A stretch of DNA of 64,000 nt from a bacterium (GCA_965221165.1 CBDCRP010000003.1:1824001-1888000); one strand, 5' to 3'. Positions 4,805 through 62,968 are shown, counted from the stretch's first letter. The notes: generated from the letters alone by a model not told the origin. Program-made: numbers and translations.

Positions 4805-6454
4805 CTACCCGAACGGGCGGGCGTGGGAGTAGGACAACTCCTCGTTCGTGATGAATTCCAGCAGAGCGGGCGTTCCCTCTTCGGTTTTTCGCCTCGCTTC
4901 CAGGAACGCCGCGCCTACTTCCGCCGGATCCTCCACGCGCTTCGCCCAGCCGCCCAGCGCTCTGGCGATGTCGGCGTATTCGCCGCCCACGTCGCGCGTG
5001 CCGTATTTCTCGTGGGAAATCGCCATGTGGTTGGTCTCCACCGCCATGGTGGAGTTTTTGAGCACCACGGTGCAGATGGGCAGGTTCTCGCGCACGGCGG
5101 TCTCGAAATCGAGCCCCGTCATGCCGAACGCCGCATCGCCCATGAAGTTCACGCAGAACTTATCGGGCGAGGCCAGCTTTGCGCCCATGGCGAGGCCGAG
5201 TCCCGTGCCGAGCTGGTGGGATTTCCCCCAGCCGAGATATGACCTCGGTACATCGGAGAGATACAAGGGCAAGACCTCGTATCGCGGATTGCCCGAATCA
5301 TGGGTGACGATGGCCTCTGCGGGCGGCACGTTCTGCATCAACTCCCAAATCACGCGGTAGGGGTTGATGGGTTTTTCATCAGATGTGAGTTTGGGCGCCC
5401 ATTCATCGAGCCAGGCCTTTCGCGTCTGCGCTACTTGTTCCCTGACTCCCTCGCCTCTTTTGACGCCCTTCACCCGCTCGGCGCAGCAGTCTATGAACTG
5501 GCGCAGCACGAGCTTCGCATCTCCGAGCACGGGATGATCGGCGGCGTAATTCTTGTTGATGTCGACCGGGTCGTTCGTCGCGTGGATGATGATCTTGCCG
5601 CCGGGTACGCGCGTGGCGAGGCCGTGGTCGGTGAGGCTCGTGCCGACGGCGAACACGAGGTCCGCGTCTTTCAGGAAATGATAGGCTGGGCCGCTCATGA
5701 CGCTCGATCCGACGCCGAGAGCCAGGGGATGGTTCCTCTCCGAGATCGCGCTTTTGCCCTCCATGGTGGTCATCACGGGAATCTGGAGGAGTTCCGCCAG
5801 TTCTTTTAACTCATCGGTCGCCTCGGCGTAGAGCACGCCAGCGCCCGCGAGGATCACCGGGCGCTCGGCGTTCAGCAGCGCATCGGCGGCGCTATCCACG
5901 TCCTTTGGGTCTCCCTGGGCGCGCGTTCGCTTCACGGGCGTGTAGCCGCCGAGCATATCCTCAGAGACTTCCACCCCGGCCACGTCTTCGGGCAACTCTA
6001 CGAGCACGGGGCCGGGACGCCCGTTCCTGAGCGCGTGAAAGGCGCGGCGCATGGCGTCCGCGGTGCGCTCGGGCACGTTGATCTGCTCCGCTGATTTCGT
6101 TACCGAGGCGTAGGAGTCGACGGAACTGAACATGGGGAACACGCGGTCGCGCCCCCTGGCGTGGCCGAGGGGGAGGAGCAGCATGGGCGTGGAATCGGAA
6201 TAAGCGGTGGAGATGCCCGGAAAGGCGTTTTCCGCCCCCGGCCCGTACTGCATGGTGAACACCGAAGGCGTGGCGCCGTTGGTGACGCGGGCGAAGCCAT
6301 CGGCGATGCCCACGCCCACACGCTCCTGGCGGCAGACGATGGGCCGGATACCGATAGCGGCGGCCGCTTCGATCTGGACGGTGGTGGGATAGCAGTTCAG
6401 GTGTTCCGCCCCTTCGCGTTTCAGGATTTCAGCGATGACGTCGACGACGCGCAT
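4805..6454 (-). CDS. Thiamine pyrophosphate-requiring enzyme (acetolactate synthase-like family)
   Basis: RQER, GPGAEN, GRPGPV, GDAAFGM TPP motif. Confidence 0.9.
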   Translation of the reverse strand: MRVVDVIAEILKREGAEHLNCYPTTVQIEAAAAIGIRPIVCRQERVGVGIADGFARVTNGATPSVFTMQYGPGAENAFPGISTAYSDSTPMLLLPLGHARGRDRVFPMFSSVDSYASVTKSAEQINVPERTADAMRRAFHALRNGRPGPVLVELPEDVAGVEVSEDMLGGYTPVKRTRAQGDPKDVDSAADALLNAERPVILAGAGVLYAEATDELKELAELLQIPVMTTMEGKSAISERNHPLALGVGSSVMSGPAYHFLKDADLVFAVGTSLTDHGLATRVPGGKIIIHATNDPVDINKNYAADHPVLGDAKLVLRQFIDCCAERVKGVKRGEGVREQVAQTRKAWLDEWAPKLTSDEKPINPYRVIWELMQNVPPAEAIVTHDSGNPRYEVLPLYLSDVPRSYLGWGKSHQLGTGLGLAMGAKLASPDKFCVNFMGDAAFGMTGLDFETAVRENLPICTVVLKNSTMAVETNHMAISHEKYGTRDVGGEYADIARALGGWAKRVEDPAEVGAAFLEARRKTEEGTPALLEFITNEELSYSHARPFG

Positions 6455-6650
6455 GTGCGTTCTCCTATCGGTTCGGTGAATGTGTTTCGTCCGGTGTCAA
6501 GAGTTTCTCACAAGTTTCGGGATAAAGAAATTTGCGCGCACAGGAGCGCGCATTCCGGCGGTTTTGGGTACAATGGCGATCTTCGACCCGCGATGATTTC
6601 ACGGAGCGACAGCGCCGCTCCCGCATCTATCAGAAAAAGGAAGCTCGGCC

Positions 6651-7418
6651 ATGGCGAATCGAGAGGCAACCACGTATGAAGTGAAAAATCACGTCGCATA
6701 CCTGACCCTGAACCGCCCGGAGAAGAAAAACGCCATCAACTACGCCATGCGCAAGGAGGTGCAGGATGCGTACGTGGACATCAAGCACAACCCGGATATC
6801 TGGGTGGCCATCATCACGGCGGCGGGCGATGTTTTCTGCTCGGGCAAGGACATTGTGGAGAAGACGCCGGAAAACGACGGGCAGGTGATGTCGAACGATG
6901 AACTCTATCTCTACCTGCGCTATCTCTATAAGCCTGTCATCTGCGCCATCAACGGGCCCTGCCTGGCCCAGGGAGCGGGCTTTGCGCTGAACTCGGACAT
7001 CCTGATTTTTTCGGAGCGCGGGTCCATGGGCTGGCCGCAGGTGCTCCGGGGAATCTCCTCGGTGAGCGGCCCCGCCATGTGCGCGCACGCGATTCCCTGG
7101 ACAAAGGCGATGAGCTACCTGATGCGCGGCAAGTTCATCCCCGCCGATGAGTGCCTTCGCCTGGGCGTAGCCACCGAGGTGGTGCCGCACGAAGAGCTTC
7201 TCCCCACGGCGGAGCGCTACGCCACCGAAATCCTGGAAGCTGCGCCTAAGGCGGTTTGCGCCATCAAGGAGGCGGCGCGCCGGGGCGAGGACCTGGCCTA
7301 TCAGGACAGGGTCTACATGTCGCGCGACGTGGCGGACCGCATCCTGCACACGGAGGATTCGAAAGAGGGAATCCTCGCATTCAGGGAGAAGAGAAAACCC
7401 GAATGGCGGGGCAGATAG
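6651..7418 (+). CDS. Enoyl-CoA hydratase/isomerase family protein
   Basis: LNRPEKKNA, FCSGKD, KPVICAING, EGILAFREKRKPEW. Confidence 0.9.
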   Translation: MANREATTYEVKNHVAYLTLNRPEKKNAINYAMRKEVQDAYVDIKHNPDIWVAIITAAGDVFCSGKDIVEKTPENDGQVMSNDELYLYLRYLYKPVICAINGPCLAQGAGFALNSDILIFSERGSMGWPQVLRGISSVSGPAMCAHAIPWTKAMSYLMRGKFIPADECLRLGVATEVVPHEELLPTAERYATEILEAAPKAVCAIKEAARRGEDLAYQDRVYMSRDVADRILHTEDSKEGILAFREKRKPEWRGR

Positions 7419-54149: not shown

Positions 54150-54812
54150 CTAGCTTCCGTTGGCTTGCTGCGCTTCACCCTCTTCGAGAGCGCGGGCGAG
54201 CGGGCCGCTCAGGTGCGAGACGGGGCAATCCCCATAGATGCGGCGCGATTCCTCCTGGCTCACCAGCCGGCCGTCGGGGGAGAACATGGGGTAGAAATCG
54301 AGCGTTCTGAAAAAAGTGTGGTAGCCCACGTTGAAGCCGATGAAAGAGCCTAATTCCACGATTTCCTCATCCGAATAGTGGTCTCTGAGCCTCGCGTAGA
54401 AGGCCTCGTCAATCTTCTCGGGTTCTGAATCCATGAGCTCGCTGTATTCGAGAGCGAGTTTTTCGGCTTCGGTGAAATTATCGCTGTCGCTCCAGTTGTC
54501 GATGCCGTCGTCTATCAGCTCCTCGGTAAGGCCCGCCTGCTTCGCCGAAGCAGAACGCACGTTCCCTCAGTAGTTGCAAAAAGCGCGGCGCGAGAGTTGA
54601 ACGCGGATGATCTCCTTGAGCTTGTGGTCGATGACGCCGGTGTTGAACACCGTGCCCCAGGCGAGGTACATCGATTTCGCCAAGTCCTCGTTGTGGCCCT
54701 GCATGGCGTGAAAGGCCGGGTCGGGCGCGCGGTGCTTGAGCGCCTTGTTGACGAAAGGAGCCAGCTTCGTCTTCTTCAGGTCCCCGATGTCGAGCATGGT
54801 GATATTGGACAT
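54150..54812 (-). CDS. AhpD/CMD-like selenoprotein, CxxU; TGA at 54567-54569
   Basis: IDHKLKEIIRVQLSRRAFCNY-TGA-GNVRSASAKQAGLTEE joins ORFs 54567..54812 and 54150..54560 in frame; hairpin at 54537-54553. Confidence 0.85.
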
Positions 54813-54861
54813 ATAAGAATCTCCCTAAAATGAAGTGCGAGATAAATTTTCGTTTATCGAC

Positions 54862-56229
54862 TCAAGCGCCGCTCTCCGCCTGAACGCGGCGCAAGGCGGA
54901 GTCGAGGGCGGACGCTGCGCGCTCGGCCTCTTCTTCGGTAAAGACCAGCGGCGGGCTGATGGTGACGGTGTTCGAGGGACCCGCCGCGATGCCGGAGTTC
55001 TTGCCGAAAATAACGCCCGCCTCCTTGGCGTAGGCCAATACCCTGGAGGTGGCCGCCGTGGACAAGGGCGCGCCGCTCTCTTCTATCAACTCCACACCCC
55101 AGATGAGGCCCACGCCTCTAATGTCGCCCACGCAGGGGATGTCGGCGAGTTTCCCCAAAAGTCCGCCCAGGTAGGCGCCCACCTTCGCGCCGCGCGCGGG
55201 CAACTCCTCGTCCATCATGATTTCGAGATTCTTGAGCGAGGCCGCGCAAGCGGCGGGGTGCCCGCCGTAGGTGTTTATCTGCAGGAATCCCGAATCGCCC
55301 TCCGCGTTTAAAGCCTCGAATATTTCGTTCGTGGTCGCAGTCGCCCCGATGGGCAGGTAGGCGCTGCTCAGCCCCTTGGCCATCGTCATGATGTCCGGCT
55401 CGACCTCATAGAGATCGGAAGCAAATAGCTCCCCCGTGCGCCCGAATCCGGTGATGACCTCATCTGCGATGAACAACACGCCGTGGTTCCGGCACACCTC
55501 GCGCATGCGTTTCAGGTAATCCGCGGGCGGGGGAATCACCCCGCCGCCGCCGATGACGGGCTCCGCGATAAACGCCGCCACGGTCTCGGGGTCTTCGTAG
55601 CGGATGACCTCGTCGAGTTCGTCCACGCACCGCTGCGCCAATTCTTCTTCGGAGCCTGCGTTGCTGCGGTAGAAATAGGGGGCGCTCACGTGAATCACGC
55701 CCGGAAGGAGCGGTTCGAACATCGCGCGCCTGAGCGTCTGGCCGGTGAGGCTCGCGCCGCCGATGGTCGCCCCGTGATAACCCTGGTGGCGGGCGATGAT
55801 TTTATACCGCCTCCCGCCGTTCAGACGTCCATAGACGCGGGCCAGCTTGATGGCGGTGTCCACGGCTTCCGAGCCCGAGTTCACGAACCAGACGCGCTCG
55901 ACCCCCTCTGGCAGCAGGGAAGCGAGCCGCTTGGCGAGCCTGGCTGCCGGCGGGTTCACCTGCGTCAGCGGATAGTAGGCCAGTTCGAGCATCTGCTCGT
56001 ACGCCGCCCGGGCGACCTCGTCGCGCCCGTAGCCGATGTTCACGCACCAAAGCCCCGCCATGGCGTCGATGTATTCCTTACCGGAGGCGTCCTGGATGGT
56101 CGAGCCTTTGGCTTTGACCACGACGTCGAGGGGATTTTCCTCGATTCCGGAATGGTTCATGAGCGGATGCCAGACGTGCTCCTTGTCCATCGTCCGCAGG
56201 GATTCGGCTTCGGCTATGGCTGGGTTCAT
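54862..56229 (-). CDS. Class III PLP-dependent aminotransferase (omega-transaminase-like)
   Basis: DAMAGLWCVNIG, SGSEA, YHGAT, FIADEVITGFGRTG, MAKGLSS. Confidence 0.92.
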   Translation of the reverse strand: MNPAIAEAESLRTMDKEHVWHPLMNHSGIEENPLDVVVKAKGSTIQDASGKEYIDAMAGLWCVNIGYGRDEVARAAYEQMLELAYYPLTQVNPPAARLAKRLASLLPEGVERVWFVNSGSEAVDTAIKLARVYGRLNGGRRYKIIARHQGYHGATIGGASLTGQTLRRAMFEPLLPGVIHVSAPYFYRSNAGSEEELAQRCVDELDEVIRYEDPETVAAFIAEPVIGGGGVIPPPADYLKRMREVCRNHGVLFIADEVITGFGRTGELFASDLYEVEPDIMTMAKGLSSAYLPIGATATTNEIFEALNAEGDSGFLQINTYGGHPAACAASLKNLEIMMDEELPARGAKVGAYLGGLLGKLADIPCVGDIRGVGLIWGVELIEESGAPLSTAATSRVLAYAKEAGVIFGKNSGIAAGPSNTVTISPPLVFTEEEAERAASALDSALRRVQAESGA

Positions 56230-56323
56230 TGGGGTCCCCTCTCGGGTTTCAACGGTTCGGTATTCTATCGATCGATGCGAAAATCTTAATGCGCAAACGG
56301 GTGCGGATCAACCGCCAGGAGAG

Positions 56324-57316
56324 CTAGCCCGGCGTATACTCGGGGCTTTCACTTTTGATTCGAAAGGCCTGGCGCCCGATACGCTGGATTTCGCCCTCTA
56401 TCAGGTCGCCCGGCTCCAGGTATTTCCCCCAAGAAGCGGCGTTGCCCGCAGGCGAGCCGGTGCCGATGATATCGCCCGTCCGCAGCGTGGCGATCCCGGA
56501 TAGATAGGATACCTGCTCGGCGACCCGCCAGACCATATCGCCCGTGGTGGCGTCTTGCCTGAGTTCTCCGTTCACCCAGAGCCTGAGCCTCAAATCGTGG
56601 GGATCCAGCCCTTCTTCGGGGAGCAGGATATAGGGGCCGATGGGAGCGAAGCCGTCCGGGGCCTTCATGGCGTACCAGTCGATGAACTTGCCCATGTTCA
56701 GGCTCGTGCGATCGCTCATGTCGTTGAACAGGGTGTAGCCGCCCACATGGTCCATGGCCCGTTCCACGGGAATGTTCTTGCCTCCCTGGCCGATGAGCAC
56801 GCCGAGTTCGAGTTCGTAGTCGAGCTTTTCCATCGAGGGATAGACGGGCACGTCCTCATTCGGGCCGCTCACGCATGTTGCGGGCTTCAAGAAACAATAG
56901 AGCGGGAGTTCCTCCTTGAAGTCATTCACCTCGATTCGCGCCATCTCGGCGGCATGGGCCACATAGTTCCTCGCCATACAAAACAGCGTGTCCGGAATGA
57001 CGGGAGGAAGAATCTCGACTTCTTCTGGTTCATAGACCACCTGCATCCCGTCGAAGCGAATCGGGTTTTTCCTGCGCCGGTGCTTCTTGAGGGCTTCGGT
57101 AGCTTCTTCCGCCAGGGGGCGGTTCATCTCCAGATCCTCGATGAATTCCTCACAATCCGCGGGCACTTCGGCTTCCGCCTGATCCATGGCCTCGGCCGCC
57201 GACTCATCATTCAGTGACAAGGCGTAGGCCATCTTGAGGTCGGCGATTTTCTCCCCGAACAAGACTCCTGTGCGCGCCTCGCCCCCCAGACTGAAAGTAC
57301 AGATTCTCATGACCAT
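56324..57316 (-). CDS. Fumarylacetoacetate hydrolase family protein
   Basis: RNYVAHAAE, FLKP, DYELELG, NDMSDR, APIGP, GTGSPAG. Confidence 0.9.
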   Translation of the reverse strand: MVMRICTFSLGGEARTGVLFGEKIADLKMAYALSLNDESAAEAMDQAEAEVPADCEEFIEDLEMNRPLAEEATEALKKHRRRKNPIRFDGMQVVYEPEEVEILPPVIPDTLFCMARNYVAHAAEMARIEVNDFKEELPLYCFLKPATCVSGPNEDVPVYPSMEKLDYELELGVLIGQGGKNIPVERAMDHVGGYTLFNDMSDRTSLNMGKFIDWYAMKAPDGFAPIGPYILLPEEGLDPHDLRLRLWVNGELRQDATTGDMVWRVAEQVSYLSGIATLRTGDIIGTGSPAGNAASWGKYLEPGDLIEGEIQRIGRQAFRIKSESPEYTPG

Positions 57317-57453
57317 GAGCCTCCGTATCTTAAATGCGCGATAAAGGGGAATCCTAGCACAGGGACGCAGGCGATGGCGCATTGCTCCTGAAAGCGGGAG
57401 CCTGTCGGGAGAACAAATAGCATGAAATTTCAAGACTCCCGCTTCAAATGCTT

Positions 57454-58269
57454 TTATTCCGCTCTTCGGTGTTTGGAGAGAAAATCAAGAATCAGGCGAC
57501 GCGCGGTATCGTCCCGCGAGAGGTTGTGCTTCCGGCCCTCGAACAGATGGAATTCCATCTTCACGCCCCGCTTTCGGGTCTTGCGCAGACATTGATCGGC
57601 GGGCCTGTTCCGCCGCCAGGGGTCGTCCTCCGAGTACAGCGCGAGCACGGGCGTCCCGCGTGGCGAGCGAACGCCGCGCCAGCATACGGAGCCTGCGATG
57701 ACGTGGGCGGCAAACTCATCCCCCTCATAGGCGGCGACCGCGGTGCCGCCCTGGCTATGTCCCACCAGGAACAGGTTTTTCCGGTCCACCCAAGGGATGC
57801 GCCGAACCCGATAAGCCGCGTGATGAATTTCCTCTTGCCGCATCCGGTTCACCCGCCTGTGAGGCGCTCCTTTTATGCCCCGGTGCCGGGAGGGATTGCA
57901 GGTCTCGGGCCGATAGCGGCGGGCGAAGCTGTCGGGAGCGATTACGGCGTATCCCGCCCGCGCGAGCACTCGCATGTAGCGCAAATTCCCGCGACCAAGC
58001 CCCGCGCAGCCGTGCGCGAAAACGACGGTGGCGCGTTTTTTCTTGAGTCCCGCAAGTTTTCCCTGAACGAATTTATCGCTCATCCTGCCTTCGATGAACG
58101 CATCGCCTATCCGAATCATGAAATAGGCGGAATCGAAGGTGCGTCTTGCTTCATCGTACAAATCGAGGGTTTTGGGGTTCAGTCTTTCGAGCGCTTCAGC
58201 GCCGAAGTGTCCATTTCCCCCAAAAAGAAGAAAACAAACCATCGCCAGGATGAAACCAGAATGCCGCAT
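57454..58269 (-). CDS. Secreted dienelactone hydrolase-like alpha/beta hydrolase
   Basis: Signal-like N-terminus, HGCAG, PDSFAR, GHSQG, D and H triad residues. Confidence 0.7.
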   Translation of the reverse strand: MRHSGFILAMVCFLLFGGNGHFGAEALERLNPKTLDLYDEARRTFDSAYFMIRIGDAFIEGRMSDKFVQGKLAGLKKKRATVVFAHGCAGLGRGNLRYMRVLARAGYAVIAPDSFARRYRPETCNPSRHRGIKGAPHRRVNRMRQEEIHHAAYRVRRIPWVDRKNLFLVGHSQGGTAVAAYEGDEFAAHVIAGSVCWRGVRSPRGTPVLALYSEDDPWRRNRPADQCLRKTRKRGVKMEFHLFEGRKHNLSRDDTARRLILDFLSKHRRAE

Positions 58270-58306
58270 TGCTGAAAAACCGCAGACTTCGCTCACTATG
58301 AACCCC

Positions 58307-59539
58307 CTAGACGACGCCCTCATCTTCGAGTTCCTTTAGCTCCGCATCCGACACTCCGAGCAGACCGCCGAGGATTTCCCCGTTGTGCTGGCCCACGAGC
58401 GGTGCGGGGGAGGCGTAGCCGCCTTTGATTTCACTGAACTTGAGAGGAAAACCCGGCGCCTTCGCGCTGGTGAGCGCTCCGAGCGTGGGGTGTTCGATAT
58501 CGACTATCATCCCGCGCTCTTGCATGTGGGGCCAGGAGAGGATGTCGTCGATATTGTTCACCGGCCCGCAGATGACGTCGTGCGCGCGCAGGGAGGAGAC
58601 CGCCTCTTTCGTCTCACGCCGCTTCGTCCAGTCGGTGATGAGGCCGTCGACCTCCTGGTGTTTGCTCACGCGCCGGCTCATGTCCTCGTATCGCTCATCG
58701 TTGATGAGTTCGGCACGCTCGATGCCGCGCAATATGTTGTGCCAGTGCGCGTTGGTTCCCGAGGCGATGATGACCCAGCCGTCTTTCGTCTCATAGGCGT
58801 TGAAGGGAGCGAGCCGCATGATGCGGTTGCCGATACGGGGTGGAAGCCCGAGCCGTTCGTAGCAATCCATCGGCTCATCGAAGATTAAGGAAAAGATGCA
58901 GTCGATCATCGAAATGTCGACCTGCTGGCCCTTGCCCGTCCGCTCGCGGTGAAAGAGCGCCGTCATGATGGCGCCGAAGGCGAACGTGCCGCCCACGCTG
59001 TCACCCAGGGCGGAACCCGCCTTGGTGGGCGGGCCGTCGGGAAATCCCGTCAGGTTCATCAGACCAGACGCAGCCTGGGAAACGGCGTCGTAGCCCTTGA
59101 GCCCCGCATCCGGCCCCGTCTGCCCGTAGCCCGTGATGGAGCAGTAGACCAGGGAAGGCTTGCGTGTATGAAGCGTCTCGTAGTCGATCTTGAGCCTTTT
59201 GGTGACGCCGACGGAGAAATTCTCCACTAGGATATCGGAGCGATCGACGAGTCCATAGAACATCTCGAGACCCCGGGGGTCCTTGATGTTGAGGGTAATC
59301 GCTTTTTTCGCGCGCGTGCGCTTCAGGTAGGCCATCCCTATGTCCTCATCCGTCTGGGGATGATAGGAGACGCCTTTTGCGCCGATATAGGGAGGGGAGT
59401 AGGCCACCGGATCGCCCGTGGCCGGATTATCGATGCGGATGACCTCGGCCCCCAGACCCGCCAGGAAAAGCGTGGCTTGGGGACCCGAGAGAAACTGTGT
59501 GAGATCCAGGACGCGAATGCCTTCGAGTGGCTTTGTCAT
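58307..59539 (-). CDS. CaiB/BaiF class III CoA-transferase
   Basis: PLEGIRVLDLTQFLSGP, ENF, SITGYGQTGP, GYD, APLVGQHN. Confidence 0.93.
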   Translation of the reverse strand: MTKPLEGIRVLDLTQFLSGPQATLFLAGLGAEVIRIDNPATGDPVAYSPPYIGAKGVSYHPQTDEDIGMAYLKRTRAKKAITLNIKDPRGLEMFYGLVDRSDILVENFSVGVTKRLKIDYETLHTRKPSLVYCSITGYGQTGPDAGLKGYDAVSQAASGLMNLTGFPDGPPTKAGSALGDSVGGTFAFGAIMTALFHRERTGKGQQVDISMIDCIFSLIFDEPMDCYERLGLPPRIGNRIMRLAPFNAYETKDGWVIIASGTNAHWHNILRGIERAELINDERYEDMSRRVSKHQEVDGLITDWTKRRETKEAVSSLRAHDVICGPVNNIDDILSWPHMQERGMIVDIEHPTLGALTSAKAPGFPLKFSEIKGGYASPAPLVGQHNGEILGGLLGVSDAELKELEDEGVV

Positions 59540-59551
59540 GAATAAACGGAA

Positions 59552-60094
59552 CTACCCGCCGAGGAGAACCTTCACCGCCTGGAGAGCAGCATCGCTCGCG
59601 CGCGCGGAGATTTCATCATCCGAAAGCGTGCTCAGGGGGTGTTGAATGACCACGGGGTCCAAGCCGTCCATGCCCAAGGCCGCCCTTTGCACGTGGGCCT
59701 CATGCAGAAAAACCTCCGTCACCACCACGGCGGTGGGCACGCCCTTTTGCTCCAGGGAGATCGCATCGTGCATACAGCACGAAGTGCAGGAGCCTCAGTC
59801 GCCAATCGCCGTCAGGACGACGTCGTTCTCCTCTGCGATTTGCGTGATCAGCTCGGGCGCCGCGTTCTTGGAAAAACTCTCTTTCTTATAGTAGTGCACT
59901 TCGGAAAAGGGGCCTTCCGCCTCCATCAGCGCCGTGGTCTTCTCGAGCAGCCTGCGCCCGTTCCACTTGGTGTTGTCCAGTATCCCGAGCTTTAAGCCCT
60001 TCAAATTCGGGACGCGCTGCGCGGTGGGTTGCGCCTCGGCCTCGACCACCCCACGGGGGTCGTAGACGATCTGGCCGGTGATGACGTCGCTCAT
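59552..60094 (-). CDS. UGSC-family selenoprotein; TGA at 59795-59797
   Basis: LDNTKWN...VVLTAIGD-TGA-GSCTSCCMHDAISLEQKGVPTA joins ORFs 59795..60094 and 59552..59773 in frame; hairpin at 59763-59787. Confidence 0.85.
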
Positions 60095-60120
60095 GGTTTC
60101 CTCCTATTCTCTCTCAAACT

Positions 60121-61215
60121 CTAAAGCAGACAGGTGCCGTCCACGCAGACGGGGCCGCCCTCGAGCGCCTTGCCGTCAATCGCCCGCAGCACCGGGTTCG
60201 TCATGTGGCCCCAGCCGGGAATGAAGGCGGAAAAACGGCCCGCATCCCCCCCCGCCACGAACAGGTGGATGTTCTCGGGACCCGGCACGATGGGGATTCT
60301 CTCGTCCGGCTCGCGCCTGTACCACCTGGGGATGTTGCGGTTATAGATTTTTCCGTAGCGGTGGTTGAACGAAATATCGGCGAACGTGTTTCTCGTGTGC
60401 ATCCACAAATAGCTCTTCACGTCGTTTCGCGTCCAGTTCTTGGCGCTTATGGTCGCCCCATGCTCGGGGCTGATGACGACGGCGCACGAACCGCTGCTCA
60501 CCGAATTGTTGTGCGCAATCGTGCTCATCGCCGAGCAAATGCTGTCGAGTATCCCCTCGGGATCGTCTGAGATATGGTTCGTCACGCTGTGGGGCGCCTC
60601 GGCCGCGATGGCGAAGACCGTGGAATCCTCGGGCGCGTAGCCTTGTTCCACGTGATAGGGCGCCCAGGGGCTCGCCTCTTCGTTCTCCGCGATGCAGTAG
60701 GTGTATTTCGTGGGACAGCCCAGCGTGCTCTTGTCGAGGTCGCCCGGCCACGCGCCGCCCACGTTCAGGAGCATCATCCGCACGGCGCGGCCTATCGTCG
60801 CGTTCGCGCGGTTGCCCGAGCCGAACACGTTGCAGCCCGCGTTCATGCCTATTTCGCCGCGAACCGGCCCGTTCACCACGATGAGCGGACACGCCATGTG
60901 GGTGGTGGCCTGCACGCCGTTCAGGTTGAAATGGGGGTCGCAAAGCGCGAGCATCGCCGCGCGGACGACGGGCGCGTATTCCGTCTTGCAACCCGCCATT
61001 ACCATGTTGATCGCCAGAACCTCTCTCGTGAGGTTGCCCCAGCGCGGGGGCACGCGGCACTCGATGAGGTCCTCCTCTCCCCCCAGGGCCGCGACGGCGG
61101 CGTCTATCTTCTCGGGCGTGGGCGGAACCACGGGAAGTCCGTCCGAGAAGCCCTGCTCGTAATAGTGCTCCACCAAATCGACTTCATGGTCTACTGTCCG
61201 GGTCGTCTGCGTCAT
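60121..61215 (-). CDS. Uncharacterised UGSC-associated protein with C-terminal CxxxxC tail
   Basis: SDGLPVVPPT, AINMVMAGC, NGVQATT, GNRANATIGRA, AENEE, ends GGPVCVDGTCLL. Confidence 0.8.
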   Translation of the reverse strand: MTQTTRTVDHEVDLVEHYYEQGFSDGLPVVPPTPEKIDAAVAALGGEEDLIECRVPPRWGNLTREVLAINMVMAGCKTEYAPVVRAAMLALCDPHFNLNGVQATTHMACPLIVVNGPVRGEIGMNAGCNVFGSGNRANATIGRAVRMMLLNVGGAWPGDLDKSTLGCPTKYTYCIAENEEASPWAPYHVEQGYAPEDSTVFAIAAEAPHSVTNHISDDPEGILDSICSAMSTIAHNNSVSSGSCAVVISPEHGATISAKNWTRNDVKSYLWMHTRNTFADISFNHRYGKIYNRNIPRWYRREPDERIPIVPGPENIHLFVAGGDAGRFSAFIPGWGHMTNPVLRAIDGKALEGGPVCVDGTCLL

Positions 61216-61336
61216 GCTGTATCACTCCTGCTCGTTCATCCCGTAAGAAATCCATCATAAACCGAATCCCGCAAAAGAAAAAGACGTAAGCTGGGGTGGG
61301 AGATGGAGTCAAAACGTTTTTAAAATCGCGTTTTCC

Positions 61337-62029
61337 CTAAGAGTCCGGAAAGAGCGTTTCCGCGTCTTTGAGCGCGCCTTCGGCCTGCTCGGGCGTCAGC
61401 CCCTTCACACCCGAAAGATCGACGCCCCGGATGTCGGCGAGTTCCATGTCGGCATCGTAGATGTGCGCACCCGTGAGCTTCGCTCCTGCGAGTTTCGCCC
61501 GCTGAAGCGAGGCTCCCCTTAGGTCGGCACCCGTAAGATCGGCATTCGTTAAATCCGCGAATTTCAAGGCCGCCGACATCATGTTCGCCCCGGCCATCCG
61601 GGCGCCGTTGAGATTCGCCCCCTCGAGGCTGGACTGGAACAGATCTGCCCCCTCGAGGCGGGCGTTCGATAGGTCCGCCTCGTCCAGGTTCGCCCACTGC
61701 GCGTTGGCGCGGGCGAGATGCGCTCCCTGCAAATTCGCCTTGGAGAGATTCACCATGAAAAAGCTGATGGCTTCAAGACGCGCGCCCGCGAAGTCGGCGC
61801 GTTCCCCGCGCGCGCCGGAACTCTGGAGCCATTTACTATGGGCTTCGATTTTTTCGGCGAAAAGGGCTTCCTGCTCCGCCTGGTCCGGCGCCATGGGCAG
61901 GCCGAAGCCGCCTCCCGACCGGGGCGCTCCACCTCCGGATGAAGGGTCGTTCTTTTTCGCGAACCAGCCGAAAATCTTCTTGAGGATGGCGCACCTCGCT
62001 TTCTGAGTCCCAGTGCCGTCCGGCTTCAT
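61337..62029 (-). CDS. Pentapeptide repeat protein
   Basis: Tandem A(D/N)LxG repeats; HSKWLQSSGARGERADF; start uncertain. Confidence 0.85.
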   Translation of the reverse strand: MKPDGTGTQKARCAILKKIFGWFAKKNDPSSGGGAPRSGGGFGLPMAPDQAEQEALFAEKIEAHSKWLQSSGARGERADFAGARLEAISFFMVNLSKANLQGAHLARANAQWANLDEADLSNARLEGADLFQSSLEGANLNGARMAGANMMSAALKFADLTNADLTGADLRGASLQRAKLAGAKLTGAHIYDADMELADIRGVDLSGVKGLTPEQAEGALKDAETLFPDS

Positions 62030-62164
62030 GACCAAAGGGGATGAAACCGATTTGTTCTTGCCTTAAGCCCAATCCTTTTGTCAAACCGGCGGCGAATTCG
62101 GTCGACCCTTGAAAGATCAGCCAGGCGGCTCATCCGCCCCAAATGCGGGGTGCGGTATGATTCC

Positions 62165-62968
62165 CTAACCCGGTGGCAGGGAGGCGAGGAACTCGTGGCA
62201 AATGCGGGCGAATAAATCTGCCCGCTCGATGAGAGCCACGTGGCCCGTGTCCTCCATGATGATGAGCTCGGAACCCTCGATGCGCTCATGGATCTCTTTT
62301 GCGTGATGGGGGTCGACGATCAAGTCGCGATCGGAACACGTGATGAGCGTGGGGACTTTTATCTGGTGAAGCCGCTCGAGGGTATCTCCCTCCAGACAGG
62401 CGCGCAGTTGTCCTTCCCAGCCGAGGTCGACTCCTGATTGTTCGGTGAGCCATCTCCTTTTCTGCTCCATCACGTCGGCGTTCGCATCGTAATATTCATG
62501 GGAATAAAGCCCCAGGAGGCTCAGTTCCACGAGCGCCTCGCGCTCGCCCCGTTCGGCGAGGCGCATGCGGGCGCGCTGAAAAGAACCCAGGCGCGCGCAG
62601 TTTCTCGCCCAGGTGTGGTGAAGACCCAGGCTCACGACGCGCCCGGGGTGACGCAGCGTGAGTTCGGTGGAAATGTGCCCACCCATGGAAAAACCCATCA
62701 CGTGGGCGCGCTCCACTCCCGCCGTATCGAGAACGCCCGCGGCGTCATCCGCCATGTCCGCGAGCGTATATCCCGGAGCGGGCGCCGTGCTTTTGCCCAC
62801 CCCCCGGTTGTCGAAGACGATGCAGCGGTAATCCCCGCTCAACAAGGGCAGTTGCGCCGACCAGAAAGTGTGGTCATGGCCCGTTCCGCTCACCAGCAGA
62901 AGGGGAGGGCCCTCTCCTTGGGTCTCGTAGAAAATCTCCAAGCCTGAGCGCAGCGTCACGAAGGGCAT
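62165..62968 (-). CDS. Alpha/beta hydrolase
   Basis: DNRGVGKS, GFSMGG, D, TGH. Confidence 0.9.
   Translation of the reverse strand: MPFVTLRSGLEIFYETQGEGPPLLLVSGTGHDHTFWSAQLPLLSGDYRCIVFDNRGVGKSTAPAPGYTLADMADDAAGVLDTAGVERAHVMGFSMGGHISTELTLRHPGRVVSLGLHHTWARNCARLGSFQRARMRLAERGEREALVELSLLGLYSHEYYDANADVMEQKRRWLTEQSGVDLGWEGQLRACLEGDTLERLHQIKVPTLITCSDRDLIVDPHHAKEIHERIEGSELIIMEDTGHVALIERADLFARICHEFLASLPPG

Follow-up and report, generated by a model that had tools for sequence, protein, structure and literature searches.

What does the selenoprotein UGSC do, and what is its relation to the protein encoded next to it? The question is raised by a locus in a 64,000-nucleotide stretch of bacterial DNA (GCA_965221165.1, CBDCRP010000003.1:1824001-1888000; the window), in which positions are counted from the first letter. 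On the minus strand, an open reading frame (ORF) for a 364-amino-acid (aa) protein that belongs to no Pfam or NCBIfam family (61215..60121; the partner) is followed by the gene for a 180-aa UGSC family selenoprotein in which TGA is read as selenocysteine (Sec) (60094..59552; PF24696, NF041046) and by a gene for a family III CoA-transferase. The partner and UGSC genes are 26 nucleotides (nt) apart, with AGGAGG before the UGSC ATG, and the gap between UGSC and the CoA-transferase gene is 12 nt. An original prediction, made from the sequence of the window, described three packed, co-oriented genes for a Sec-dependent two-subunit reductase; the gene limits and the gaps are as it gave them. The conserved unit is the pair of partner and UGSC, and the CoA-transferase is an optional neighbour. 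We propose that the pair forms a two-subunit selenol/thiol oxidoreductase served by thioredoxin-type donors, with the C-terminal tail of the partner as a shuttle, and give this package as a whole a probability of about 0.55.

The pairing of UGSC with the partner is already in print. UGSC was reported as a selenoprotein of function not known in the Olavius paper (2007), and Zhang and Gladyshev (2008; PMC2398784) count it among the selenoprotein families of highest abundance in the GOS data. In the available part of the latter paper, UGSC is fused to a conserved domain, 'Unknown_1', with one conserved Cys (alignment in Fig. S1A); the fusions described there are N-terminal UGSC fusions only, from ocean reads, Unknown_1 is limited to a few aquatic organisms, and no function is given. 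As far as it is accessible, a 2022 review adds no function for UGSC, and a 2026 review (PMC13188914) still lists UGSC among the families that are largely uncharacterised in function. Our literature search for UGSC with thioredoxin reductase (TrxR) and fusion gave no further paper on the link. Compared by eye, residues 68-125 of the partner share the block A-I/V-N-x-V-M-A-G-C-x-x-E-Y-x-P-V ... A-T-T-H ... V-N-G-P and the Cys of Fig. S1A, and by this sequence likeness the partner is the Unknown_1 of PMC2398784; the difference is that the two proteins are here encoded by separate genes, partner first. Added here are an orthologous group of near-invariant, tail-bearing partners, the optional CoA-transferase, LarA-like and sel genes that accompany it, a test of co-absence and the results of fold searches. 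The tail, Cys106 and Cys107 of UGSC, the fusions to TrxR and FeThRed_B domains, the fusions in both orders and the many paralogs likewise go beyond the accessible text of PMC2398784.

Selenocysteine decoding of the UGSC gene

The UGSC protein scores 197.1 bits against PF24696 (cut-off 25) and 159.8 bits against NF041046 (cut-off 125). Its motif is D99-U100-G-S-C103-T-S-C106-C107, and the reading frame is open only when the TGA at 59797..59795 on the minus strand (residue 100) is read as Sec. In all 83 UGSC genes compared (76 from related loci and 7 copies of this genome itself), there is one in-frame stop, which is always TGA at the Sec site and always lies in the context D/G/H-U-G-S-C/S. U100, G101 and S102 are invariant in the UGSC alignment. 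The Cys at position +6 from Sec (U-G-S-C-T-S-C) is present in 76 of 76 UGSC proteins from orthologous loci, where the next residue is C, S or I, and paralogs and fused forms carry W at that position (UGSCTSW or CGSCTSW).

Just 3' of the TGA, a hairpin resembling a selenocysteine insertion sequence (SECIS) is found at 59763..59787 on the minus strand. The upper stem UCGUGC/GCACGA (59782-59766) closes the loop UGUAU, and the lower stem GCA/UGC is set off by a CU bulge. This hairpin, which the original prediction had drawn together with the U-G-S-C motif, has the lowest energy among folds of the 66 nt that follow the TGA (-21.7 kcal/mol), a value that is ordinary for the composition (z = -0.98 versus shuffles). 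Support for the hairpin comes from conservation. In 70 distinct UGSC sequences aligned from the TGA, the eight pairs of the stem (columns 14-21 with 27-34) are formed in 93.4% of cells, versus 7-53% when the 3' side is slid, and the six core pairs are almost never broken. The synonymous sites G18 (Ser TCG), C21 (Cys TGC) and T24 show little or no variation, and the loop keeps G23-U24, of which G23 is nearly invariant and U24 invariant. Both motif and hairpin are as predicted, and the hairpin is conserved in place. An Rfam scan of the Sec region returned no SECIS family and two chance rows. The genome carries a tRNA-Sec gene and SelA (507 bits). On these sequence signals, Sec insertion at the UGSC TGA is well supported.

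Linkage of partner and UGSC genes

In a scan of one genome per species, at least 576 stretches encode relatives of the partner; all counts over 80 loci in this paper refer to the best 80 of these. The 80 loci are 72-96% identical and come from isolates and from metagenome-assembled genomes (MAGs) whose labels are Nitrospinota, Tectomicrobia, Vicinamibacterales, Chloroflexota, Alpha- and Betaproteobacteria, Eremiobacterota and others. Cultured carriers include Reyranella sp. (L045) and Vineibacter terrae (P0097). A full-length UGSC gene is present in 76 of the loci and lies downstream of the partner on the same strand in 75, at an estimated distance of at most 195 nt in 69, 341-494 nt in 4 and about 1.1 kb in 2. 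At one further locus (L061), the sole UGSC gene is distant, 4 kb upstream of the partner.

The genome under study (G000) has 7 UGSC genes and 13 partner-family genes (36-46% identity). Six of the UGSC genes directly adjoin a partner gene, before or behind it, and the seventh is 2.7 kb from four tandem partners; three partner genes are solitary. The four tandem genes share one strand (G000 C3:2030804-2034933; L103:9745-14084). The UGSC gene of this cluster is located downstream, beyond a molybdopterin-dehydrogenase gene on the opposite strand, and AhpC/TSA and OsmC genes are a few kb upstream.

Genomes of the phylum give the same picture, in counts that describe the linkage and do not test it, the genomes being kin: UGSC is present in 41 of 49, with an orthologous partner next to the best UGSC in 32. 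In five of five further UGSC-positive genomes, partner genes stand beside UGSC genes, and none of the five UGSC-negative genomes tested has a partner gene by a profile that did match G000. Conservation of the neighbourhood and fusion of the two genes had been named as the check on the original prediction; the pair is adjacent in 75 of 80 loci, the two genes are present together and absent together in the genomes tested, and fusions exist in both orders, as described next. As a separate observation, three partner-family matches from two genomes of one genus (G040:C152:2605-3597, G040:C84:6686-7720 and G041:C1:829444-830478) each contain one in-frame TAG, which may reflect gene breakage, two separate genes or a recoded stop.

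Domain fusions

Fusions were collected from 20 multi-domain proteins among the best 150 of 4858 homolog representatives and from 28 homologs longer than 637 aa. Four proteins are UGSC-partner fusions with Cys instead of Sec (P0144, P0170, P0182 and P0189). In another four (P0135, P0148, P0154 and P0161), a fragment of UGSC from after the TGA precedes the partner; these are Sec forms with a gene call that begins after the TGA. The reverse order, partner-UGSC, is found in P0125, P0142 and P0149, which end in ...GD, exactly before the Sec codon. Seven of the 28 long homologs carry UGSC, and two of the 20 scanned proteins are partner-partner tandems.

Redox domains are also joined to the partner. 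A Pyr_redox_2 domain of the TrxR type is present in 15 of the 28 long homologs, several of which carry the source name thioredoxin reductase, and in P0199; the catalytic domain of ferredoxin-thioredoxin reductase (FeThRed_B) is present in P0177 and P0201, and an AhpC/TSA domain of the peroxiredoxin fold in P0176. The reading of the pair as a thiol/selenol reductase fits these fusions to TrxR-like, FeThRed_B and AhpC/TSA domains. The original prediction is thus supported in part: adjacency, fusion and co-occurrence make the partner and UGSC a functional pair, and the Sec-dependent reductase fits, but its CoA-activated or sulfur-containing substrate is a guess, because the CoA-transferase is not fixed to the pair.

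The AhpC/TSA fusion is also what would be expected of a selenol-based peroxidase, antioxidant or repair enzyme, in which one subunit would act as reductase of a peroxide, sulfoxide or disulfide and be regenerated by the other. The AhpC/TSA and OsmC genes near the four tandem partners, a CMD/AhpD-like gene just upstream of another paralog and the placement of UGSC among thiol oxidoreductases, in what is accessible of PMC2398784 and PMC13188914, point in the same direction. Neither protein, however, gives a peroxidase-type fold in the fold searches, and the 13 partner and 7 UGSC paralogs of this genome stand in differing catabolic settings (CoA metabolism, peptide transport, peptidases, an aldolase and monooxygenases). 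These settings include two acyl-CoA dehydrogenases with RidA, enoyl-CoA hydratases, two luciferase-like oxygenases, an oligopeptide ABC transporter, two S15 peptidases, the CMD/AhpD-like gene and an aldolase of the HpcH type that follows a 2-oxoacid dehydrogenase complex. Because the paralog neighbourhoods differ in this way, the family looks like one that has diversified in substrate and not like a single housekeeping antioxidant, and we consider the peroxidase quite unlikely.

Conserved residues and C-terminal tail of the partner

The partner matches no Pfam or NCBIfam model even at E<=10. Of 8000 scored candidates, 7800 are homologs, and the 4858 representatives are those at E<=1e-3. A search of the ESM Atlas gave unnamed clusters only, plus one with UGSC on 16% of its members. 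In an alignment of 66 family members, D25, G75, G142, R143, E177 and G322 are invariant, and G26, L27, P28, P31 and P32 are conserved at 90% or more. Cys76 is found in 63 and Cys174 in 61 of the 66 sequences, and the remaining nine Cys residues of the partner are variable. The conserved blocks are D25-G-L-P-x-x-P-P, M-A-G-C76, G142-R143, C174-x-x-E177 and G322-G323, so that the core motifs picked out by the original prediction (DGLPVVPPT, AGC and NRANATIGRA) recur across the family.

The partner ends in the tail C357-V-D-G-T-C362-L-L (60124..60147, minus strand). The ending C-x-[DG]-[GD]-x-C-x-x is common to all 80 orthologs. The CxxxxC tail of the original prediction is accordingly present and conserved among orthologs, but it is not a property of the family: it is missing from the other 12 partner paralogs in this genome (1 of 13 has it) and from most of the 66 aligned members. 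Other C-terminal Cys pairs (CDDAC, CREC, CIDC and CEC) close other subfamilies (P0129, P0139, P0196, P0239 and P0255). Two homologs, P0191 and P0213, have a C-terminal extension of about 100 aa that carries a conserved CxxC motif, A-C-x-x-C-L-V-P, and has no Pfam match. A strict coupling of UGSC Cys106 to the tail was considered and rejected; the paralogs L082 and L084 have that Cys, but their nearest partners are tailless.

Predicted structures

The AF2 model of the partner has a pLDDT of 93.5 and a pTM of 0.92. Cys76 is located between helices 64-74 and 78-91, where the second of these begins. The tail is modelled as a short β-hairpin with strands 356-358 and 361-363, at the lower confidence of pLDDT 72 and 66 for the final two blocks. 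PDB searches with the sequence, the partner profile and the UGSC profile gave chance rows (E 0.5-2) and no convincing solved relative of the partner. The top fold match is the α subunit of class I fumarate hydratase (7xky_A; Foldseek E 1.2e-3, probability 0.75, TM 0.26-0.31; by VIA, Z 6.5, 173 aligned residues, rmsd 5.3). Like the proposed pair, this hydratase is a two-subunit enzyme that acts on a small dicarboxylate, but the partner has two conserved Cys residues (C76 and C174) and not the three that bind the iron-sulfur cluster in such hydratases. Homology to it (PF05681) was rejected: hhalign against an 8-sequence Fumerase alignment gives a probability of 0.9% over 18 columns, and there is no Pfam hit. 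Residues ~206-339 of the partner resemble RidA/chorismate-mutase-like units at Z 5-6.4 only.

The UGSC model (pLDDT 92.8) takes the shape of a three-layer, flavodoxin-like α/β domain in the order β-α-β-α-β-α-β-α. Sec100 is located just before helix 101-116, and the model makes the U/C stretch a regular helix (pLDDT 93-98). The matches, at Z 9-11, are to azoreductase/flavodoxin, TIR, receiver and periplasmic-binding-type domains, and none of them stands out. The top 50 rows of either UGSC fold search contain no thioredoxin-fold entry, a list that cannot exclude the fold. UGSC is grouped with the thiol oxidoreductases and described as thioredoxin-like in fold in the accessible parts of PMC2398784 and PMC13188914; our flavodoxin-like matches do not readily agree with that 'likely Trx-like fold'.

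The cysteines of the two proteins could also serve as ligands, the tail and U-x-x-C-x-x-C(C) binding a metal or an iron-sulfur centre where the subunits meet, with Sec possibly among the ligands. Six conserved S/Se ligands would be at hand: U100, C103, C106 (76 of 76), C107 in part, and C357 and C362 (80 of 80). Cluster-binding motifs with CxxCxxC spacing exist, which UxxCxxC resembles, and the C-x-D-G-x-C hairpin may be compared to a metal-binding knuckle. The regular helix predicted for the U/C stretch is nevertheless unlike cluster-binding loops, and the chemistry of the family dispenses with the extra ligands, as paralogs and fused forms have W in their place and no tail. A metal centre is for these reasons hardly probable.

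Proposed mechanism

That the partner and UGSC are two subunits of one enzyme is the part of the proposal in which we have more confidence than in the package as a whole. In UGSC, Sec100 at the helix start would cycle with Cys103 between the selenol/thiol and selenylsulfide states. The partner would be the larger, substrate-specific subunit, in physical contact with UGSC, and its pocket would be formed by Cys76, as the reactive residue, with Cys174, Asp25, Arg143 and Glu177. Electrons would come from thioredoxin-type donors. In the orthologous group of this locus, which has no fused donor domain, the C-x-D-G-x-C tail may be a built-in dithiol shuttle from a free reductant to the Sec/Cys centre, and UGSC has an extra Cys106 (and Cys107) there. 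The CoA-transferase, hydrolase and aminotransferase genes would be lineage-specific company; a small carboxylic acid or acyl-CoA as the substrate is hinted at by them, without being defined. Gene linkage, fusions, conservation, the signals for Sec decoding and the predicted folds are observed, whereas physical contact, the way electrons flow, the role of the tail and the substrate are what we infer.

The proposed layout has precedents. Protein B of glycine/sarcosine/betaine reductase and of D-proline reductase (the Grd/Prd systems) consists of a UxxC selenoprotein (GrdB/F/H, PrdB) and a larger, Sec-free, substrate-specific subunit (GrdE/G/I, PrdA), made as a proprotein, and is fed by thioredoxin. 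The likeness is one of layout: a Sec subunit with a larger Sec-free subunit, several substrate-specific paralog pairs per genome and thioredoxin as the reductant. There is no sequence similarity (for either protein, no Pfam hit but UGSC at E<=10, apart from one chance row for RE_HpaII), the hosts here are mostly aerobes, and nothing points to pyruvoyl-forming self-cleavage; the comparison is thus an analogy and not membership. A Cys pair on a flexible C-terminal extension is known from the R1 tail of class Ia ribonucleotide reductase (RNR) and, as Gly-Cys-Sec-Gly, from large TrxR, enzymes that are re-reduced via a thioredoxin-type donor. The partner is unrelated to these proteins, its spacing is CxxxxC in a β-hairpin, and such a tail, a putative shuttle here, occurs only in one orthologous group and some other subfamilies. 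The thioredoxin-coupled pI258 arsenate reductase ArsC, with the low-molecular-weight (LMW) phosphatase fold and a three-cysteine relay, resembles UGSC in having a three-layer α/β domain with a nucleophile at a helix start and further cysteines to which a disulfide could be handed on; it has no sequence relation to UGSC, which needs a partner subunit.

Several observations weigh against the oxidoreductase proposed here. The TrxR, FeThRed_B and peroxiredoxin fusions are found in subfamilies about 40% identical, outside the orthologous group of this locus, and the recurrent neighbours of that group include neither a thioredoxin gene nor one for TrxR. Fusions to Amidohydro_2, AMP-binding (P0287) and Cys/Met-PLP (P0289) domains occur as single clusters and could be gene-calling merges. 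A redox role of Cys76 and Cys174 is suggested by their conservation only, in a protein with no CxxC and no solved relative. The heterogeneity of the neighbouring genes means that the substrate is not fixed by context. Covariation in the UGSC hairpin is not significant: two pairs change on both sides, a number matched by 135 of 500 shuffles, and five of the eight pairs never vary; the weakness of this signal is explained by the conserved peptide, which fixes most of the stem bases. At L022, L055 and L069, no UGSC gene is found within the DNA fetched around the partner. In a Longimicrobiales MAG (L017:5130-5577), an intact partner (81% identical) is followed only by fragments of UGSC and CoA-transferase genes, through decay or an assembly fault. 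Because of these four loci, the excess of partner over UGSC genes in this genome (13 versus 7) and the three solitary copies, the partner may also work without a dedicated UGSC.

CoA-transferase and alternative neighbours

The family III CoA-transferase (410 aa; 59539..58307, minus strand) is a full-length member of PF02515 (E 1.1e-112; aligned to positions 1-366 of the 366 in the profile). Its closest solved relative is a succinate--hydroxymethylglutarate CoA-transferase (9br7_A, E 1.3e-76), and it is closest to the dicarboxylate CoA-transferases. All seven of its NCBIfam matches are below the equivalog cut-offs (285 versus 750 for succinate--glutarate, 275 versus 700 for succinyl-CoA:mesaconate and 263 versus 442 for formyl-CoA transferase), and since every cut-off is missed, no characterised substrate class can be assigned.

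A CoA-transferase gene is present in 27 of the 80 loci and is 13-68 nt behind UGSC in 24, which are Nitrospinota-like MAGs, the alphaproteobacterium L042 and the Burkholderiales L065, L067, L071, L072 and L078. A LarA-like gene takes its place in 18 Vicinamibacterales loci, directly downstream in 11 of them. At L013:5673-7010, the CoA-transferase ends after about 195 residues and is merged in one ORF with a dienelactone-hydrolase-like gene; the partner and UGSC are intact. The fixed three-gene operon of the original prediction does not hold in view of these counts, the exchange for the LarA-like gene and the halved copy. Further neighbours are a PQQ dehydrogenase gene upstream (21 loci), an amidase gene (3 loci) and, at a single locus each, genes for an acyl-CoA dehydrogenase, a luciferase-like oxygenase and a methyltransferase. 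The neighbour census used a codon-position GC score as a guard against antisense ORFs in GC-rich DNA.

The same counts bear on the idea, put forward with the original prediction, that the pair reduces a CoA-thioester, or a sulfur compound brought into this activated form, which the CoA-transferase supplies. The 24 loci with the gene close behind UGSC would agree with such a substrate, as would the acyl-CoA dehydrogenase and enoyl-CoA hydratase genes that flank the copies at L103 and L104 in this genome as well as at L029 and L020, and the homolog P0287 with its AMP-binding enzyme. Yet 53 of the 80 loci have no CoA-transferase within 4 kb, the pair is intact where the enzyme is cut to its first 195 residues, and the position is held by the LarA-like gene in the 18 Vicinamibacterales loci and elsewhere by the amidase, the luciferase-like oxygenase or the methyltransferase. 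In this form the idea is unlikely. A weak hint at small carboxylic or 2-hydroxy acids, or at their CoA esters, comes from the dicarboxylate-type CoA-transferase together with the LarA-like gene.

Selenium genes form another class of neighbours. The selA gene is upstream in six loci (L041, L065, L067, L072, L076 and L078), and a Pyr_redox_2-AIRS gene of the Ndh-SelD type is directly downstream of UGSC in L041 and L054 (about 5157-7382). In some Alpha- and Betaproteobacteria, the pair is thus located between selA and an Ndh-SelD-type gene, i.e., inside a selenium-utilisation cluster. An enzyme that handles selenium or sulfur would suit such a position, whether as a perselenide/persulfide carrier or as a reductase delivering selenium to selenophosphate synthetase or sulfur to a cofactor pathway. 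LarA needs a sulfur-containing cofactor, which would give the LarA-like neighbour a place in this scheme, and P0289 joins the partner to a Cys/Met PLP lyase. The adjacency is more simply explained by the frequent location of sel genes next to the main selenoprotein gene of a genome, however, and it is seen in only 8 of the 80 loci; the many paralogs per genome and their catabolic neighbours also misfit a single trafficking role, which makes this scheme very unlikely.

Extent of the transcription unit and other features

The unit that contains the pair is probably longer than three genes. A dienelactone-hydrolase-like α/β hydrolase (57454..58323, ORF with family match), a fumarylacetoacetate-hydrolase-family protein (56324..57433) and a class III aminotransferase (54862..56229, ORF with family match) are encoded behind the CoA-transferase gene, all on the minus strand. 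The extension is suggested by the 17-nt overlap of the hydrolase ORF with the CoA-transferase stop and by the genes that follow on the same strand. The start of the fumarylacetoacetate-hydrolase-family gene is probably called too far upstream, as its relatives have 328 aa. A simple scan found no terminator-like site on the minus strand in 54500-62500. The limits of the operon are drawn from spacing alone, because the counts of the promoter and terminator scan are not above those of shuffles.

In 11 close relatives, too, the dienelactone-hydrolase-like gene is located downstream. Its ORF has a possible internal start, followed by a hydrophobic stretch, MRHSGFILAMVCFLLFGG, which is signal-peptide-like; if MRHSGFILAMVCFLLFGG is a signal peptide, the hydrolase may work outside the cytoplasm, apart from the pair. 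Directly upstream of the partner is a pentapeptide-repeat gene (61337-62035, minus strand), which is kept in 12 close relatives and not in distant ones. Elsewhere in the genome, on the minus strand of contig C3 (L103:2780-3342), TGA is part of the active-site motif of a 6-O-methylguanine-DNA methyltransferase gene, a motif that becomes P-U-H-R when the codon is read as Sec. This is a known selenoprotein family, and the standard gene call stops at 153 aa.

Implications for the UGSC family

In its boldest form, the proposal would make the pair an undescribed class of Sec-reductase with its own fold, widespread in aerobic soil and water bacteria, in which, within the near-invariant orthologous group, electrons pass from free thioredoxin via the RNR-like tail to Sec100/Cys103/Cys106 and on to Cys76/Cys174 and reduce a small carboxylic acid or CoA ester as handled by the neighbouring CoA-transferase or LarA-like 2-hydroxyacid racemase. 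As a whole, this form is unlikely. Taken by itself, the locus is a modest gain, a well-preserved example of the pairing printed in 2008. For the UGSC family, a near-constant, unnamed partner, TrxR-type wiring and one tailed group turn the selenoprotein into a concrete biochemical problem, one that could yield a novel enzyme fold as well as a novel use of selenocysteine.

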